Origin: Oscillospiraceae bacterium
GTDB taxonomy: Bacteria > Bacillota > Clostridia > Oscillospirales > CAG-272
Assembly (NCBI GenBank): GCA_015063695.1
Contig: SVTQ01000005.1
Location: forward strand, 5,572-69,571
Direction of reading: 5' to 3'
Length of the DNA stretch: 64,000 nt
Each line of letters begins with the position of its first letter. Positions within the stretch are counted from its first letter, which is position 1. A model generated the notes under the pieces. It did no database searches and was not told the origin of the DNA. It saw nothing but the letters and a program-made list of their open reading frames with translations. Both the position numbers and the translations under genes were made by a program. Below, piece after piece: positions 4,325 to 54,060 of this stretch.

Positions 4325-6103
4325 TTATTCTACTTCGTTGAGGTAATCGTCAGCGTTTGTTGTTTCGCCTTCGGCAGTTTCGTTTTCAAGCTTATAGGAC
4401 ATGTAGTCCTTCATCATCATGCGCTTAAAGTCACGACCGAAGTATGTTGCATCCATATCACTGAGAACGTCAGAGAAGAGGAATGCATCCTGTTCGAAGA
4501 ATATAGGCATAACAACTGCATCTTCGAGGAGCTTATCTTCTGCCTGGTGCAGGAGAGCCCCGATCTCAGCTTTATCTGCAGATGCATAAATGCTTTCAAA
4601 GATAGCATTGTATTCTTCGCTGTTGTATCCGTTTACGTGGCCGTACATGGGATAGTCTTCGGAATCCATTTCAACGCCGTTACCGGAGAACGCTGTTGCA
4701 AAAGGAGCAAGCGCACCATATGCTTCGGATGTGAGCATCTGAGCATCAACTGCCATTACGTCATAGTCACCCTTTGCATAAGCTGTTGCGAAATCATCAA
4801 CTACGATAGTACTGTCGTTTGCATCATAGGAGTAGCTGAGAACTCTGATCTTAACTGTGAGACCAAGCTGTTCCCATACGCTCTTTACATATTCGGCAAC
4901 TGCAAAATCAACCTCGTCATCTCTTACGGAAATAGTAAGTGTTCCGCCGTTTACGCCTGCCTTCTTAATAAGGGACTGCGCTCCTGCAAGGTCGGCAGTT
5001 GTAGAAATAGCAGCTCCGTCAGCGTCAGCAACGTCACGGAAGCTCTTACCCTTTTCCGCATCGTTTACAGTGAGAGGAATAAATCCTGTTGCGGGCTTAG
5101 CATACTTAACGATGTTTACGATCTCTTCTCTGTCGATTGCCATAGAGAGAGCACGTCTTACGTCAGCATTTGCAAGGAGCTCGTTGTTGAGGTTAAAGTA
5201 GTATGTATGAGTTGCACTGATATCGGTCGCGTTTGCGTAGTCTGCATATTCTTCTCTTGATTCAAGAGGAATCTCGCCGAGATAGAAGAGTTCGCCGCAA
5301 AGGAGAGCATCAAGCTGGTCGGCAAGTGTACCGATATCGTAGTGTGTGATAATTCTGTAAGGAATAACGTACTTATCGAGGGGATCGTTTTCCTCTGTGT
5401 TACGGTAGTAGTATGCGCTTCTTTCAAGACGCATTGTTTCGCCGTATGTAAGTTCCTTAACGTCGAAGGGACCGTTTGTGATCATTGTGGAAGCCTTCTT
5501 AGCCCAGTTAGCGTTTTCGGAAACGATATCTTCACGAAGGGGAACGAGGGCGGGGCTTGCAACAGTTCTGAAGAAGCTGTCAAGGTCGATCTTCTTTTCG
5601 AATTCTATCTCAAGAACGTAAGTTTCGATAGCGGATACACCAAAGTCGTCAATGGACATATCGCCCATCTTTACTTCGCGTGCATTCTTAATATCGTAAA
5701 GCATAGAAGCAGCTTCACACTTGAATTCGGGTTCAAGGATTCTCTTCCATGCAAATACAATGTCGTTTGCCTGAACAGGCCTTGAGTCACTCCACTTTGT
5801 ATCTCTGAGTGTAATTTCAATTTTAAATCCGTCTGCATCATCCTGAGACACTACGTAGTCCTTCATAAGGGCCTTTTCCCAGTTTCCTTCGGAATCAAGA
5901 CGTGTAAGACCTTCAAAAACCAAGGACAGTATCTTGGCACATGAAGCATCGGTAAAACCGAATGCGGGGTCATAGTTGTAAATCTCGTTGGTAAGGTATA
6001 CATCGATCACAGCACCCTTATCGTCTTCTTCCAGCGTTGTGCAGGAAGTAAAGGTGCAAACAAGCATGATCATGCAGAGAACCAGCGCCAAAACTCTTTT
6101 CAT
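4325..6103 (-). CDS. ABC transporter substrate-binding lipoprotein, family 5 (peptide/nickel type)
   Basis: Lipoprotein signal MKRVLALVLCMIMLVCTFTSC. Length 592 aa, with overall SBP_bac_5-like sequence. No permease or ATPase genes are adjacent. Confidence 0.8.
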   Translation of the reverse strand: MKRVLALVLCMIMLVCTFTSCTTLEEDDKGAVIDVYLTNEIYNYDPAFGFTDASCAKILSLVFEGLTRLDSEGNWEKALMKDYVVSQDDADGFKIEITLRDTKWSDSRPVQANDIVFAWKRILEPEFKCEAASMLYDIKNAREVKMGDMSIDDFGVSAIETYVLEIEFEKKIDLDSFFRTVASPALVPLREDIVSENANWAKKASTMITNGPFDVKELTYGETMRLERSAYYYRNTEENDPLDKYVIPYRIITHYDIGTLADQLDALLCGELFYLGEIPLESREEYADYANATDISATHTYYFNLNNELLANADVRRALSMAIDREEIVNIVKYAKPATGFIPLTVNDAEKGKSFRDVADADGAAISTTADLAGAQSLIKKAGVNGGTLTISVRDDEVDFAVAEYVKSVWEQLGLTVKIRVLSYSYDANDSTIVVDDFATAYAKGDYDVMAVDAQMLTSEAYGALAPFATAFSGNGVEMDSEDYPMYGHVNGYNSEEYNAIFESIYASADKAEIGALLHQAEDKLLEDAVVMPIFFEQDAFLFSDVLSDMDATYFGRDFKRMMMKDYMSYKLENETAEGETTNADDYLNEVE

Positions 6104-11698: not shown

Positions 11699-13114
11699 TT
11701 ATTTTGCATTAAAGTTAAGTCCGAGGCCGTTTGCATAGTTTTCAGCTGTGGAGCCTGCGAGACCGATAAGTGTGCTTCCTTCGGAAATGGAGAAGCCTTC
11801 ACCCTTTGCGAAGAAATAACCGTATGCGTACTTACCGATAAGAGTTGCCTTGGAAGGAATCTCAAGAGATGTGAGACTTTCGCAACGGCAGAATGCGTAC
11901 TTACCAATGTTGGAAACAGAAGAAGGTACGTTTACGGATGTGAGAGCCTTACATTCATAGAAGCAGTCACTGCCTACAGATGTGAGACCTGCGGGAAGAT
12001 CAATGCTCTTGAGAGAAGAACAACGGTAGAAGATACCCTTACCGAGGGATGTGAGTGTGGAAGGAAGGTCGATGGACTCAAGTCCTGTGCACTCATAGAA
12101 CATATAGTTTGTAAGAGTTGTGATACCTTCGGGAATAGCAATCGTCTTGAGAGAAGAACATCTGCCGAAAGCTCTGGAAGCGAGCTTTGTTACAGCTGCG
12201 GGGATATCAAGAGCCTTGAGCGCGTAGCACTGATAGAAGGCTTCCTTTTCAATAGTTTCTATCGTAGAAGGAAGTTCGATGGTTTCGATGGATTCGCAAC
12301 CGTAGAAGAGACCTTCGTTTACTACGTCGATACCTTCGGGAATTGCAATGGCTTTGAGAGCCTTGCAGTACTTGAATGCGTTTTCGCCGATGTAGTTAAC
12401 TGTTGCGGGAATATCGAAATGGTCGATAAGGATACATCTTCTGAATGCGTTTGCACCGATGTGTTCAAGGCTTGCGGGAAGTTCAAAGTTTACGAGCTTG
12501 GGGTTATTGGAGAACGCAAATTCACCGATGGACGTAACTGCATCGTTCATATGAACGGTTGTAAGCTCGGGCATACATTCAAATGCGCTGTCACCGATAA
12601 CCGTCATGCCTTCAGGAATTGTGAGTTCTGTAATCGCAGAGTACATGAACGCATACTTTCCTACTGTCTTTACAGAGGAAGGAATATCAAGGTCAGAAAC
12701 CTGAGAGTCTCTGAAAGCTTCCTTACCGATATGCTCGACAGAATCGGGAATATTCATTTCATCTGCGTTCTTGAGAAGCGCGAATGCATAGTCGGGAATA
12801 GACTTGATTCCGTCTTCAACTTCGAGAACCATTATGTAATCGTAAACTGCGCTTGTTACGCAACTGATCCAGGGAAGTTCAAGTGCAGAGCCGTATTCGG
12901 GAAGGATACCGTCAGCTTCGCCTTCATAATCGGGATTGAAACCGATAGAAAGCGTGTTCTCTGTAATTCCGCCCCAGCCCTTGGTGTAGTCCCATTTGTA
13001 ATAATACTCATCATTGGGACCAAACGTGCCGTCAACAACCTTTGCAGAAACAGCAAAAGGAAGAACGGATACGAGCATTACCGCACAAAGGATAATAGCT
13101 AAAAGTTTTTTCAT
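11699..13114 (-). CDS. secreted leucine-rich-repeat protein (BspA-like LRR_5)
   Basis: Signal peptide MKKLLAIILCAVMLVSVLPFAVSA. At least 12 tandem ~23-aa units of the form IP.SV..IG..AF..C..L. Confidence 0.8.
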   Translation of the reverse strand: MKKLLAIILCAVMLVSVLPFAVSAKVVDGTFGPNDEYYYKWDYTKGWGGITENTLSIGFNPDYEGEADGILPEYGSALELPWISCVTSAVYDYIMVLEVEDGIKSIPDYAFALLKNADEMNIPDSVEHIGKEAFRDSQVSDLDIPSSVKTVGKYAFMYSAITELTIPEGMTVIGDSAFECMPELTTVHMNDAVTSIGEFAFSNNPKLVNFELPASLEHIGANAFRRCILIDHFDIPATVNYIGENAFKYCKALKAIAIPEGIDVVNEGLFYGCESIETIELPSTIETIEKEAFYQCYALKALDIPAAVTKLASRAFGRCSSLKTIAIPEGITTLTNYMFYECTGLESIDLPSTLTSLGKGIFYRCSSLKSIDLPAGLTSVGSDCFYECKALTSVNVPSSVSNIGKYAFCRCESLTSLEIPSKATLIGKYAYGYFFAKGEGFSISEGSTLIGLAGSTAENYANGLGLNFNAK

Positions 13115-22956: not shown

Positions 22957-25404
22957 TCAGCCGTCAGAGCTGATTGCGTGACGCATTTCAACTGTTACAA
23001 GAGTACCTCTTGGTACCACTTCGCCTGCCGCAGGATACTGTGTTGAAACGGTGGCGGTTGCGCCGTTGGTTGCTCCGACTATGCTTACGTTGAGTCCGAG
23101 ATTTGTGAGAATTCTGTTTGCCGCCTCCGCAGTTTTACCTACAAGGTCGGGGACAGTGATATCTGCTTTGGGAGCTTCGCTTCCCGTATAGAGGTAAACA
23201 ATACCGTCCTGCTTGGAAATGGAACTGCCGCCTTCAGGTATCTGGGACACTACGGTGGGGCCGTCACCCATTATCTTATAGCTTATCTCTCTCCACTCAA
23301 GATCGGCTATCGCATTATCTCTTGCCGAACCAACATAATTAGGTACGCTTATTTCAGCGGTCTTCATCTCTTCCGCGGTATAAACGGGTTCATAGCCCAT
23401 ATAAGGAAGAATGAAGGAGAGAAGGTTTGAGACGTAGGGAGCCGCAACAACACTTCCGTATACACTGCCGTTTGACGGTTCGTCAACTACGATGAGCACT
23501 GCGACCTGAGGGTCGTCTGCAGGTGCAAATGCCACGCAGGAACCTACTCTGAGAGATTTTTCGCCGTTGGCATCAAGCTTATCTCGCTTTTCGGATGTAC
23601 CTGTTTTAGCCGCTACCTTATATCCTTTTACGTATGCGTTTCTCGCACCGCCGTCACCCGAAACACCTTCTTCAAGGATCTGAGCGATGGTGTTACAGGT
23701 CTCTTCGCTTACTATATGTCTTTTAACGTCGGTCTCGTAAGTTTCGATTACGTTTCCGTCATCGTCAACGATCTCTTTAAGTACGTGAGGAGTTACAAGA
23801 TACCCCCCGTTCGCAACGGATGAAATTGCCGTTATCTGCTGAAGAGGTGTGGTCTTGAAGGTCTGACCGAAGGAATATACCGCAAGTGATGCGTTTGTAA
23901 AGTCCTTGAAGCTGTGATACATTGCAGATGCTTCGTTGGGAAGGTCAATTCCTGTGAGGGACGTATAACCAAACTGTTCGAAGTAGTTGTAGAACTTTGT
24001 CTGACCCAATCTGAGACCGAGGGTCATGAGCACGGGGTTGCAGGACTGCTGAAGTCCTACCGCAAAGGATACCTGACCGTGACCCGTTCTCTTATGGCAG
24101 TGAATGGGTTTCGGATATCCTTCGATGGTCATTGAACCGCCGCAGTAAAAGCCTTCGTCAACTCTTACCACTTTTTCTTCAAGAGCCATGGCGGTCGTCA
24201 TGATCTTGAAGGTTGAACCGGGTTCATAGGTTTCCGTTATCGCCTTATTTTTCCACGCGGTGAACAGCATAAGCTGTTTTTCCTGGGTCTCATACTCCTC
24301 TGTTCCCGGAGTGAGTTTGGAAAGCTTTGCAAGCGCATTTGCATCAAGGGCTGAATGAAGAGCATCGAAGTTCTCGGCACTTATGGTTCGGGGATCGTTA
24401 AGGTCGAAGGAGGGGTAGGTCCCCATTCCGAGAATACCGCCCGTGTTTACGTCCATTACGATTCCCGTAACTCTGCACGCCGCTTTATGGTCTTTAAGTG
24501 CATTTTCAAGCTGGTTTTCAAGCTCGTACTGTATATACATATCAAGAGTGGAAACAAGGTTATAACCGTCCTTCTCTTCCACGTAAGTCTCGTATTCAAA
24601 GGGCATATCCTGATGATGAGCATCCTGAGCTGTAATATATCTGCCCTTGGAGCCTTCCATAAGGTTATTGTAATACTGCTCCATACCGTAGGCTCCTCTG
24701 CCGTCCACGTCGGTAAATCCGATCACGTGAGAAGCGAGTGAATCATAGGGGTAATATCGGATGGAGGTTGCTACGAGATAAAGCTGAAGCTTAAGCTCGT
24801 ATTTATCAATAAATTCTCTTATTGCGTCGGCGGTGTCTTCGTCAACAAGTCTTGCGACGACCTCGTAACGTCTTCCCACCTTCTTTGTTTTCTCCATGAC
24901 TTCGTCGTATTCAACGTCTTCTATAAGTCCCGAGAGAAATCCTGCGATAAGTCTGTCCATGGTGAGGTCTTTTTCAAGAACACCGTCAAAATTCTGCCAT
25001 TCGAAAACAGGCTGTTCGTTTTCCTTTTCTTCACCTTTGCTTCTAAGAGAGATCAGAAAATCAACTATTTTTTCTATAAATCCGTCTTCCTCGACTTCTT
25101 CCTCACCCTTTGCATTCGGGTCGGTTATATCGAGGATATCCTGGGGAGAGATTACAACCATATATCTTGTTGCGTTTGTTGCAATTACGTTTCCGTTGGT
25201 ATCGTGTATATCTCCTCTTTCGGGATTTACTTCTATTTCCGTGGTCATCTGCTCAAGAACAAGGTTCTGGTAGTATTCGTGGTCGATGACCTGCATTTTA
25301 AACAAGGATATTATTATAAACAGTGCAAATGCAAAGAACACAGCAAGCAGAAAATAAGCTTTTTTATGGGTTGCTCTGTCCATTCTCATGTTAAACCCTG
25401 CCAT
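22957..25404 (-). CDS. class B penicillin-binding protein (FtsI/SpoVD-type) with two PASTA domains
   Basis: Transpeptidase motifs STFK (GSTFKIMT), SCN and KTGT. An N-terminal TM segment. Two PASTA repeats at the C-terminus. AAAGGAG RBS before ATG 25404. Confidence 0.9.
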   Translation of the reverse strand: MAGFNMRMDRATHKKAYFLLAVFFAFALFIIISLFKMQVIDHEYYQNLVLEQMTTEIEVNPERGDIHDTNGNVIATNATRYMVVISPQDILDITDPNAKGEEEVEEDGFIEKIVDFLISLRSKGEEKENEQPVFEWQNFDGVLEKDLTMDRLIAGFLSGLIEDVEYDEVMEKTKKVGRRYEVVARLVDEDTADAIREFIDKYELKLQLYLVATSIRYYPYDSLASHVIGFTDVDGRGAYGMEQYYNNLMEGSKGRYITAQDAHHQDMPFEYETYVEEKDGYNLVSTLDMYIQYELENQLENALKDHKAACRVTGIVMDVNTGGILGMGTYPSFDLNDPRTISAENFDALHSALDANALAKLSKLTPGTEEYETQEKQLMLFTAWKNKAITETYEPGSTFKIMTTAMALEEKVVRVDEGFYCGGSMTIEGYPKPIHCHKRTGHGQVSFAVGLQQSCNPVLMTLGLRLGQTKFYNYFEQFGYTSLTGIDLPNEASAMYHSFKDFTNASLAVYSFGQTFKTTPLQQITAISSVANGGYLVTPHVLKEIVDDDGNVIETYETDVKRHIVSEETCNTIAQILEEGVSGDGGARNAYVKGYKVAAKTGTSEKRDKLDANGEKSLRVGSCVAFAPADDPQVAVLIVVDEPSNGSVYGSVVAAPYVSNLLSFILPYMGYEPVYTAEEMKTAEISVPNYVGSARDNAIADLEWREISYKIMGDGPTVVSQIPEGGSSISKQDGIVYLYTGSEAPKADITVPDLVGKTAEAANRILTNLGLNVSIVGATNGATATVSTQYPAAGEVVPRGTLVTVEMRHAISSDG

Positions 25405-34157: not shown

Positions 34158-34185
34158 GTACGGGAGGAGCAAGCCCCTCCCCTAC
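34158..34185 (-). repeat. singleton GTAG-hairpin (REP-like)
   Basis: Minus strand: GTAGGGGAGGGGCTTGCTCCTCCCGTAC. It has the same GTAGGG...CCGT frame as the arms of the 53882-54004 element, but a different stem. Confidence 0.6.
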
Positions 34186-34195
34186 CTGATTGTTT

Positions 34196-34240
34196 GAAAG
34201 TTTTGAAGGGGTGTGGGGAAACTTTTTCAAAAGTTTCCCT
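34196..34240. repeat. copy 1 of a ~50-nt hairpin element placed just after a stop codon
   Basis: gaaagttttgaaggggtgtgGGGAAACTTTTtcAAAAGTTTCCCt. About 85 percent identical by eye to 48498-48549. It ends 9 nt from the E1 stop codon. Confidence 0.7.
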
Positions 34241-48497: not shown

Positions 48498-48549
48498 AAA
48501 AGTCTTTGAAGGGAGTTTGAGGGAAACTTTCTTCAGAAAGTTTCCCTCA
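48498..48549. repeat. copy 2 of the ~50-nt hairpin element placed just after a stop codon
   Basis: aaaagtctttgaagggagtttGAGGGAAACTTTCttcaGAAAGTTTCCCTCa. 13-bp stem. It ends 7 nt from the icd stop codon. Confidence 0.7.
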
Positions 48550-53756: not shown

Positions 53757-53795
53757 ATTGTATACAATTATACCACTATGCGCATTGGTTGTCAA
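53757..53795 (-). promoter_or_regulatory. consensus sigma-A promoter overlapped by a 12-bp palindrome (candidate GntR operator)
   Basis: Minus strand: TTGACA (53795..53790), 17 nt, TGgTATAAT with the -10 at 53772..53767. This is immediately followed and overlapped by ATTGTATACAAT (53768..53757), then the AAGGAG RBS and ATG 53736. Confidence 0.65.
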
Positions 53796-53881
53796 TACAT
53801 ATATTCATATATTATAGAGTGCAAGGTGATTTGTGAGGATTTTTCATTATTATATATAAGTAGTTTTTTCATCAATTATTA

Positions 53882-54004
53882 AACGGACAGTCGAGGACGC
53901 CTGTCCCTACGAATAAATTCAACGTTCGTTATCCGTGAGATATAATCCACCAAAAAAAACGTTCCCTCTATCGTTGTAGGGACAGGCGTCCTCGACTGTC
54001 CGTT
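53882..54004. repeat. REPIN-like element: two perfect 29-bp inverted GTAG-hairpin arms around a 65-nt spacer
   Basis: Left arm 53882-53910 aacggacagtcgaggacgcctgtccctac. Right arm 53976-54004 is its exact reverse complement (GTAGGGACAGGCGTCCTCGACTGTCCGTT). Each arm also folds on itself (GGACAG-10 nt-CTGTCC). Confidence 0.85.
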
Positions 54005-54030
54005 CATATTCATAAATCCTCCAAAAGCGC

Positions 54031-54060
54031 AAAAAAGGGAGGCATTTCTGCCTCCCTTTT
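54031..54060 (-). terminator. rho-independent terminator after the surface-protein gene
   Basis: AAAAAA-GGGAGGCA-TTTC-TGCCTCCC-TTTT. Confidence 0.8.

Follow-up and report, generated by a model that had tools for sequence, protein, structure and literature searches.

A REPIN-like doublet of GTAG-footed hairpins in an Oscillospiraceae genome and its repeat family in gut and rumen Clostridia

Closest described systems and the doublet

To our knowledge, systems that join repetitive extragenic palindromes (REPs), or their paired form, the REPIN, to REP-associated tyrosine transposases (RAYTs) have been studied almost solely in Proteobacteria. In Escherichia coli, REPs are extragenic imperfect palindromes with a GTAG foot that occur in inverted pairs and in bacterial interspersed mosaic elements (BIMEs). 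The E. coli transposase, TnpA_REP, has an HUH motif, a catalytic tyrosine and a set of residues that contact the GTAG; it is bound to a REP hairpin in structure 4ER8, and its nuclease activity is cited by Quentin et al. (PMC6006769). We analyzed a window of 64 kb (the whole stretch of DNA examined, from contig SVTQ01000005.1 of an Oscillospiraceae bacterium) that contains a 123-bp inverted doublet at 53882-54004 with the same REP traits, and RAYT-like proteins from other genomes that carry the repeat have the same protein traits. Very probably, the doublet is a REPIN/BIME-like pair of inverted REPs with their GTAG feet inward, is one member of a family of REPs spread among Clostridia of the gut and rumen (Oscillospiraceae, Ruminococcaceae and Acutalibacteraceae) and would be mobilised by a RAYT. 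Compared with the E. coli system, the host is a Clostridium, the stem is shorter (nine positions) and closed by a tetraloop, and the RAYT gene has its REPs within it, not on either side.

Three further described systems resemble this locus. The REPINs of Pseudomonas fluorescens SBW25 likewise consist of inverted REPs with a short spacer that together form one long hairpin, and a RAYT was proposed as their mobiliser (Bertels and Rainey 2011). In the terms of the GTAG-tagged REP superfamily (Di Nocera et al. 2013), the window doublet is a 'tail-to-tail' dimer; shared with that superfamily are the GTAG tag, dimers 20-100 bp apart, positions 3' of genes and in gaps where neighboring genes converge or run in one direction, and now and then a copy in frame within an open reading frame (ORF). 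The main text of that survey mentions neither Clostridia nor Firmicutes (PMC3733652). The ends of IS200/IS605 elements (IS608, ISDra2) are also subterminal single-stranded DNA hairpins read by an HUH/Y1 TnpA, and these enzymes rank just below 4ER8 among our fold matches. Unlike those ends, REP units have neither a transposase gene between them nor tnpB, their arms are inverted rather than on the same strand, and the GTAG foot is typical of REPs.

Group 1 RAYTs are 'also found in the Clostridia' (Bertels et al. 2017). A literature search that combined REP-associated tyrosine transposases with clostridial families of the gut gave no such report among its 15 top results, all of which lacked the transposase term. 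An initial annotation of the window had proposed that a clostridial family would be worth documenting. The family has proved to be large and un-annotated, but it is less new than that proposal implied, since clostridial RAYTs and REPs inside RAYT genes are both in the earlier literature (PMC5581495, PMC6006769).

The doublet is composed of three parts.

53882-53910, minus strand: REP arm A, GTAGGGACAGGCGTCCTCGACTGTCCGTT on the minus strand, preceded by TC; GTAG foot at 53910-53907, toward the spacer
53911-53975, no strand: A+T-rich spacer of 65 nt; its partial self-complementarity (AACGTT...AACGTT) lengthens the long hairpin
53976-54004, plus strand: REP arm B, GTAGGGACAGGCGTCCTCGACTGTCCGTT, preceded by TT

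The initial annotation had described perfect inverted arms of 29 bp, separated by 65 nt and each containing its own GGACAG-10 nt-CTGTCC hairpin. We confirmed these coordinates, and the arms are complementary at 29 of 29 positions. The orientation it gave, with GTAG followed by the hairpin when each arm is read from the outside in, is reversed: GTAG is at the inner end of both arms (CTAC at 53907-53910, GTAG at 53976-53979), faces the spacer, and stands directly 5' of the GGACAG...CTGTCC stem. The 29-mer is present at only these two sites in the window and had no match in 100 dinucleotide shuffles. When folded as single-stranded DNA (-8.7 and -8.8 kcal/mol, z = -3.8), an individual arm forms the GGACAG/CTGTCC stem, a G-A mismatch and two inner pairs closed by a TCCT loop. 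The full 123-nt element forms one long hairpin as DNA (-42 kcal/mol, z = -12.1) and also folded as RNA. A strict scan of the window for perfect-stem hairpins missed the REPs because of the stem mismatch and returned mainly terminators. Rfam gave nothing at the doublet at the gathering threshold, and at E <= 1 just weak chance matches on the neighboring terminator; blastn of the 147-nt region against INPHARED phages and PLSDB plasmids gave no match.

Two JGI metagenome contigs (L129 and L130; L numbers designate collected loci) have a 365-nt intergenic region that is 100% identical to that of the window, indicating that the doublet is not an assembly artefact. The same two contigs were considered as a strain comparison and set aside as uninformative, their sequence being that of the window.

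Given perfect inverted repeats around a short segment, we also considered an inverton, in which the 29-bp repeats would serve as recombinase sites for flipping a promoter in the 65-bp spacer. By eye, the plus strand of the spacer does contain TTCAAC-17-TATAAT. This explanation is extremely improbable. The promoter scan did not return this spacer site, the doublet has the same sequence and a single orientation in three independent assemblies, and none of the six neighboring genes scanned against Pfam (0/6) encodes a recombinase. Across more than 100 loci the arms are mostly single or otherwise arranged. Finally, a 65-bp segment is very short to be inverted by a recombinase.

The class-1 REP family across genomes

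The variant seen in both arms of the window doublet is the commonest one in a class of REP units, here called class 1, with the consensus YY-GTAG-GGACAG-GCG-TCCY-CGA-CTGTCC-GT. We scanned one genome per species with the pattern GTAGGGACAG-N10-CTGTCCGT. The repeat was found in at least 120 stretches, mainly from metagenome-assembled genomes (MAGs) of Clostridia (Oscillospiraceae, Acutalibacteraceae and 'Eubacteriales') of ruminant and human guts. Several genomes contain 3-7 or more copies, with at least seven units in SIG709 and at least six in JAZRRX01, and the same REP occurs in dozens of species and on phage-like contigs. Among the matches listed, the N10 of the scan pattern is GCGTCCTCGA in 58/143 copies and GCGTCCCCGA in 18/143. 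The initial annotation had taken the perfect identity of the two arms as a hint of either recent mobility or selection on the long stem. Recent mobility is not needed: because both arms are the commonest family variant, their identity is explained without it.

The stem covaries among family members. Three inner stem pairs are left free by the scan pattern, and among the matches listed (44 distinct sequences) these were paired in 73.5% of cells, compared with 50% in shuffles, of which 0/500 reached the observed value, and 21-46% in slid controls. Both-sided changes were observed at all three of these pairs, and compensatory inner-stem variants include CCG-TCCC-CGG and ACA-TCCT-TGT. The two bases 5' of GTAG are pyrimidines in 91/107 and 101/107 copies (again among the matches listed), and GT(T) follows on the 3' side of the stem.

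Family members are extragenic and clustered. Among the matches listed, open frames of 150 codons or more contain 26% of copies, versus 83% of random positions. Family arms adjoin unrelated genes in many species, and in several cases a contig ends within 40 nt of a REP copy. Another GTAG-footed hairpin lies no more than 150 nt away from 62% of units, and the family loci contain 360 GTAGG-footed hairpins versus 9-120 behind control pentamers, an enrichment of 3-8-fold or more. With relaxed matching, the 168 units among the matches listed comprised 11 GTAG-inward doublets (spacers 18-86 nt), 12 GTAG-outward doublets, 7 tandems and 110 singletons. The initial annotation had proposed checking whether doublets outnumber singletons; among these matches from other genomes they do not. 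The prevalence of exact-class singletons (110/168 units), together with a 28-nt REP that is common to many species, distinguishes this family from the REPINs of SBW25.

In genome SIG709, sequence comparison supports the copying of doublets as units: three doublets with different gene neighbors have homologous spacers and flanks inside a composite repeat of ~300 nt. The doublets of L003, L023, L033 and L113, whose flanks can be aligned, were considered as one orthologous site, which was rejected on the basis of their neighbors (glyA/murA versus flippase/dUTPase). Since the neighboring genes differ, these doublets are copies of the ~300-nt composite repeat.

Copies and relatives of the unit were also observed in other settings. 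On the IMG/VR contigs L121/L127 (5445 / 2359), L123 (10492), L124 (8847) and L126 (891), the exact 26-nt REP core lies in stop-free frames of 528-1126 codons; judging from these frames, large phage or prophage genes may have taken up REPs in frame. A search of these contigs gave no RAYT. Environmental MAGs (Nitrospira/Nitrospirales, Nitrospinota, Omnitrophota, Sedimentisphaerales and others) contain a related unit, GTAGGGACAGGC-CCCCGT-GCCTGTCCGT, and variants of it, the stem being longer and the loop 6 nt (L020, L022, L024, L030, L037, L086, L089, L094, L104 and other loci), so the same outer stem is used far beyond Clostridia. Regularly spaced copies were seen at three loci: a tandem array of four REP copies with a 410-nt period and a second GTAG hairpin per period in L017 (4087-5343), four copies at a 37-nt period in L046 (Planctomycetia; 2027-2165), and three copies at an 85-nt period in L068 (5354-5551).

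RAYT-like proteins and the REP hairpins inside their genes

At six genome loci (L014, L038, L052, L058, L096 and L115), the repeat lies inside an ORF for a RAYT-like protein of 165-200 aa with the motifs PNHIH (HUH), NIWQxRxxDHxIR and YIxxNP. The best sequence match of this protein in the PDB is 4ER8, E. coli TnpA_REP, at ~21% identity. In this alignment, the catalytic tyrosine is in register, as are the GTAG-contact residues W94, Q95, E100 (here D), H101, R104 and N119, with roles as assigned by Quentin et al. 2018 (PMC6006769). An AlphaFold model based on 47 homologues (pLDDT 75.6) had 4er8_A as its top Foldseek match (E = 6.3e-8, TM 0.58), followed by IS200/IS605 TnpA structures. By sequence, the RAYT-like proteins are divergent relatives of the curated families. 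Matches at E <= 1e-10 comprise about 2,000 protein clusters; NCBI names these proteins 'hypothetical protein', and one JGI record reads 'REP element-mobilizing transposase RayT'. One class-1 RAYT is MBE6546432.1 (P0151). In two genomes a RAYT is accompanied by the repeat elsewhere in the same genome, namely JAZRRX01 (L014 with L002 and L043) and CAYRQA01 (L096 with L029).

Every one of the six genome RAYT genes contains two in-frame inverted REPs, oriented GTAG-outward around the HUH motif and encoding VGTGVLDCP and GQS(R/G)TPVPT. Both REP-encoded segments are low-confidence loops in the AlphaFold model. The RAYT of L115, which is 36% identical to that of L014 (tblastn), has a different REP class, GTAGGGGCGCGCATTGCGCGCCC, at the same two positions, and RAYTs 54-60% identical to L014 have nearly the same class-1 28-nt REP, with 0-1 mismatch to the consensus. 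In metagenomes, the in-gene pair is present in 54/80 RAYT loci (L137-L216), with an identical frame in 54/54 (GTA GGG = Val-Gly) and 132-177 nt between the arms. In-gene arms differ at 0-4/22 nt within a gene and diverge widely between genes; those of the L137 RAYT exactly match the first 22 nt of the window arm, with no arm-to-arm mismatch. Among the listed homologues of this class-1 RAYT, the stem changes from TGT/ACA to GGT/ACC at both sites jointly (C/Q 39, G/P 58, others 4), and the loop position of in-gene hairpins varies independently. L038 has an in-frame tandem duplication of a 33-nt unit, and P0122 also has extra in-frame duplicated units. In comparable cases, the class of the in-gene REP matches that of REPs elsewhere in the same genome.

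REPs in frame within tnpA_REP genes, as in these clostridial RAYTs, are described for RAYT subclass 2.4 (= Bertels Group 4), which is found mainly in Cyanobacteria and Bacteroidetes; Quentin et al. 2018 give no clostridial REP family (PMC6006769). The clostridial RAYTs resemble this subclass, by likeness rather than by phylogenetic placement. Two fixed, frame-locked and co-varying in-gene sites are our own observation, partly known already. Separately, we considered whether GTAG-outward doublets between genes could be RAYT genes with an internal deletion, and rejected this idea given that their spacers are stop-rich and RAYT-like only in the REP-encoded residues. The in-gene pair could conceivably be a working part of the system, such as a site of autoregulation, a switch for self-excision or a master copy to which REP sequence and enzyme specificity are anchored, perhaps with horizontal spread of the family among gut Clostridia; we regard this as doubtful. 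If it were so, the window doublet would have been dispersed from such a system.

By analogy with TnpA_REP, a plausible route for mobilisation would begin with single-stranded DNA, in which each unit of 28-31 nt would fold into a stem of nine positions (in the window, eight pairs and a G-A mismatch) capped by a TCCY tetraloop and carrying GTAG at its 5' foot. The hairpin would then be bound by an HUH/Y1 transposase of the RAYT type, whose gene would lie at another place in the genome and which would read the GTAG, and cut and rejoin nearby; the two conserved pyrimidines that directly precede GTAG are the candidate cut site. REP units or doublets would thus be copied to new extragenic sites. By the same analogy, RAYT binding, cleavage and mobilisation may extend to this genome and may still be under way there. 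The initial annotation had read the locus as a RAYT-associated, REP/REPIN-like doublet, and this holds at the level of the family, which is a multi-copy extragenic repeat with stem covariation and with hairpin-bearing RAYTs elsewhere.

The size of the element (123 bp) and its terminal inverted repeats are also reminiscent of a miniature inverted-repeat transposable element (MITE), in which 29-bp terminal repeats would be moved by the DDE transposase of a conventional insertion sequence. However, the sole transposase-like genes found with the repeat encode HUH/Y1 proteins, and the supposed terminal repeat is itself a self-folding GTAG-footed hairpin that is alone in most copies. In addition, spacers differ among copies, and the flanks of the window doublet (...ATTATTA / CATATTC...) show no target-site duplication. 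A MITE origin is therefore scarcely credible.

Genomic site, relatives and a second REP class

On the minus strand, the order of features is a 777-aa surface-protein gene, a hairpin with a T-run, the doublet, a promoter, and genes for an HMGL-like synthase, a GntR/FCD regulator and aconitase. We thereby confirmed the context given in the initial annotation, which had placed the doublet between the terminator of the surface-protein gene and the promoter of a citrate synthase operon.

56435-54102, minus strand: surface-protein gene, 777 aa
54033-54060, minus strand: hairpin and T-run, interpreted as intrinsic terminator of the surface-protein gene; 12-bp perfect stem
53795-53767, minus strand: promoter TTGACA-17-TATAAT with TG, 12/12 sigma-70 consensus, of the synthase / GntR / aconitase operon

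The terminator-like hairpin precedes the doublet by 29 nt in the direction of transcription and is conserved in the sister locus L131; a consensus terminator scan gave no terminator-like site at 54033-54060. The -35 hexamer of the synthase promoter begins 87 nt past the doublet, and both hexamers are invariant in six related loci. In relatives, isocitrate dehydrogenase comes next after the synthase, GntR and aconitase genes, an arrangement that would fit a clostridial Re-citrate-synthase operon. A perfect 12-bp palindrome, ATTGTATACAAT (53757-53768), overlaps the -10 hexamer and the start region of the same promoter. The sequence GTATAATTGTATACA is invariant in all six related loci, whereas the spacer around it diverges, and from its sequence and position the palindrome is a plausible candidate operator for the GntR/FCD regulator of the operon.

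Comparison with relatives shows that the doublet is not a fixture of this site. L131, the closest relative found (synthase 97% identical), retains both terminator and promoter and has ~115 nt of unrelated DNA in place of the doublet and its flanks (~176 nt). In relatives at 87-88% identity, the gap 5' of the synthase gene is 132 nt (L133, L134) or 159 nt (L136), and the REP is absent. The comparison with sister strains suggested in the initial annotation thus finds the doublet missing in L131 and in more distant relatives, although in L131 by way of a replacement. The same element with diverged arms, which the initial annotation had named as the sign of an old structural element, was not what these relatives carry; they lack the doublet. 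It is therefore a gain/loss polymorphism and not a conserved element of the operon. The outer flanks 53830-53850 and 54006-54026 are 76% complementary over 21 nt and lie roughly at the edges of the segment that differs from L131. This complementarity may reflect chance in A+T-rich sequence or be a trace of a larger inserted unit.

These relatives also bear on the proposal of a local cis-regulatory or structural element, whether it backs up the terminator, insulates, stabilises RNA or controls the downstream operon as a binding site. Such a role would suit a very stable predicted structure positioned exactly between a terminator and a promoter, and E. coli REPs have been reported with side functions of this kind (Di Nocera 2013, PMC3733652). 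It is nonetheless very unlikely, since the closest relatives have the terminator, promoter and operon without the doublet, and in many species the same arms adjoin unrelated genes, while RAYT genes contain them too. The doublet is followed by no T-run, matches no Rfam family and, being past the terminator and ahead of the promoter, is probably not transcribed. Most likely, it is a neutral passenger in an untranscribed terminator-promoter gap, with no role in the citrate-synthase-like operon.

Several observations weigh against a RAYT-mobilised doublet. The difference from L131 is a replacement with no clean empty site, leaving the insertion boundary undefined. The RAYT-like proteins miss curated cut-offs (57.5 bits versus 80 for NCBIfam NF047646 REP_Tyr_transpos, 22.2 versus 23 for Pfam PF01797 Y1_Tnp), and an extra REP of the same class outside the gene, no more than 3 kb away, was found in just 10/54 RAYT loci, unlike classical REPtrons. 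The search for a Y1/RAYT gene proposed in the initial annotation was borne out by RAYT-like genes with matching hairpins in other repeat-bearing genomes, but not in the 64-kb window, where no RAYT gene was found and tblastn gave REP-encoded peptides only. Named RAYTs (locus tags E7668, E7642 and E7607) considered as belonging to this genome were rejected, as they come from MAGs of the same study other than the source MAG, which encodes MBE6562504.1. The density of REPs, with one doublet and one class-2 REP (three units / 64 kb), is low relative to Pseudomonas or E. coli. Finally, no second copy of the doublet spacer was found in 216 loci or the viral collection, and this spacer aligns weakly with those of doublets from other genomes. 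Copying of the doublet as a unit, which defines a REPIN in the strict sense, is thus seen only in other genomes.

The lack of a RAYT in the window, the three REP units in 64 kb and the spacer without a second copy could all be explained by an inert relic, in which a doublet of the REP family is immobile here because its RAYT was lost or is inactive, and persists as neutral intergenic DNA. A decayed RAYT is known elsewhere, the L096 gene being broken by a stop codon. We consider this explanation unlikely, as decay would erode arms that are both exact copies of the commonest variant (29/29), and the absence of the doublet from the closest sister genome indicates a recent gain or loss. The inert relic differs from the RAYT-mobilised doublet that we favor solely in present-day activity.

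The window also contains one REP of a second class.

34160-34185, minus strand: single class-2 REP, GTAGGGGAGGGGCTTGCTCCTCCCGT, between the terminators of two convergent genes

The initial annotation had noted a singleton at 34158-34185 with the same frame and a different stem. This is an exact class-2 REP copy, with the coordinates corrected to 34160-34185. The collected loci contain 25 copies of this REP as well as compensatory variants, for example GTAGGGCGGGGGCTTGCTCCCGCC and GTAGGGTTGGGGCTTGCTCCAACC, and in-gene pairs of this class are present in RAYT loci L166 and L167. The GTAGGG...CCGT pattern, for which the initial annotation had suggested a genome-wide count, has a further match in the window at 23434, which on inspection has no obvious stem and looks like chance. 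A third palindrome type, GGGAAACTTTC-TTCA-GAAAGTTTCCC, is present in the window at 34216-34239 and 48518-48549, just 3' of gene ends. The same type also occurs beside REP doublets in the ~300-nt composite repeat of L003, L023, L033 and L113 (Oscillospiraceae), and in their sequence layout these mosaics of a REP doublet and a third palindrome resemble BIMEs. One IMG/VR contig, L122, from JGI sample 3300031555 (also the sample of L129), has a class-1 core at 4580 and an exact class-2 REP at 12745, and may come from the window organism or a close relative.

For the adjoining operon, the outcome is a negative result, in that the doublet is not a conserved regulatory part. For the family, a large un-annotated REP/RAYT counterpart is documented in gut and rumen Clostridia, as a newly documented lineage of a known mobile repeat. 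Its REPs break metagenome assemblies, make small strain-level intergenic differences and occur in frame inside genes. Because enzyme and hairpin are combined in one gene and co-vary, these RAYT genes provide a convenient natural data set on hairpin reading by Y1 enzymes.

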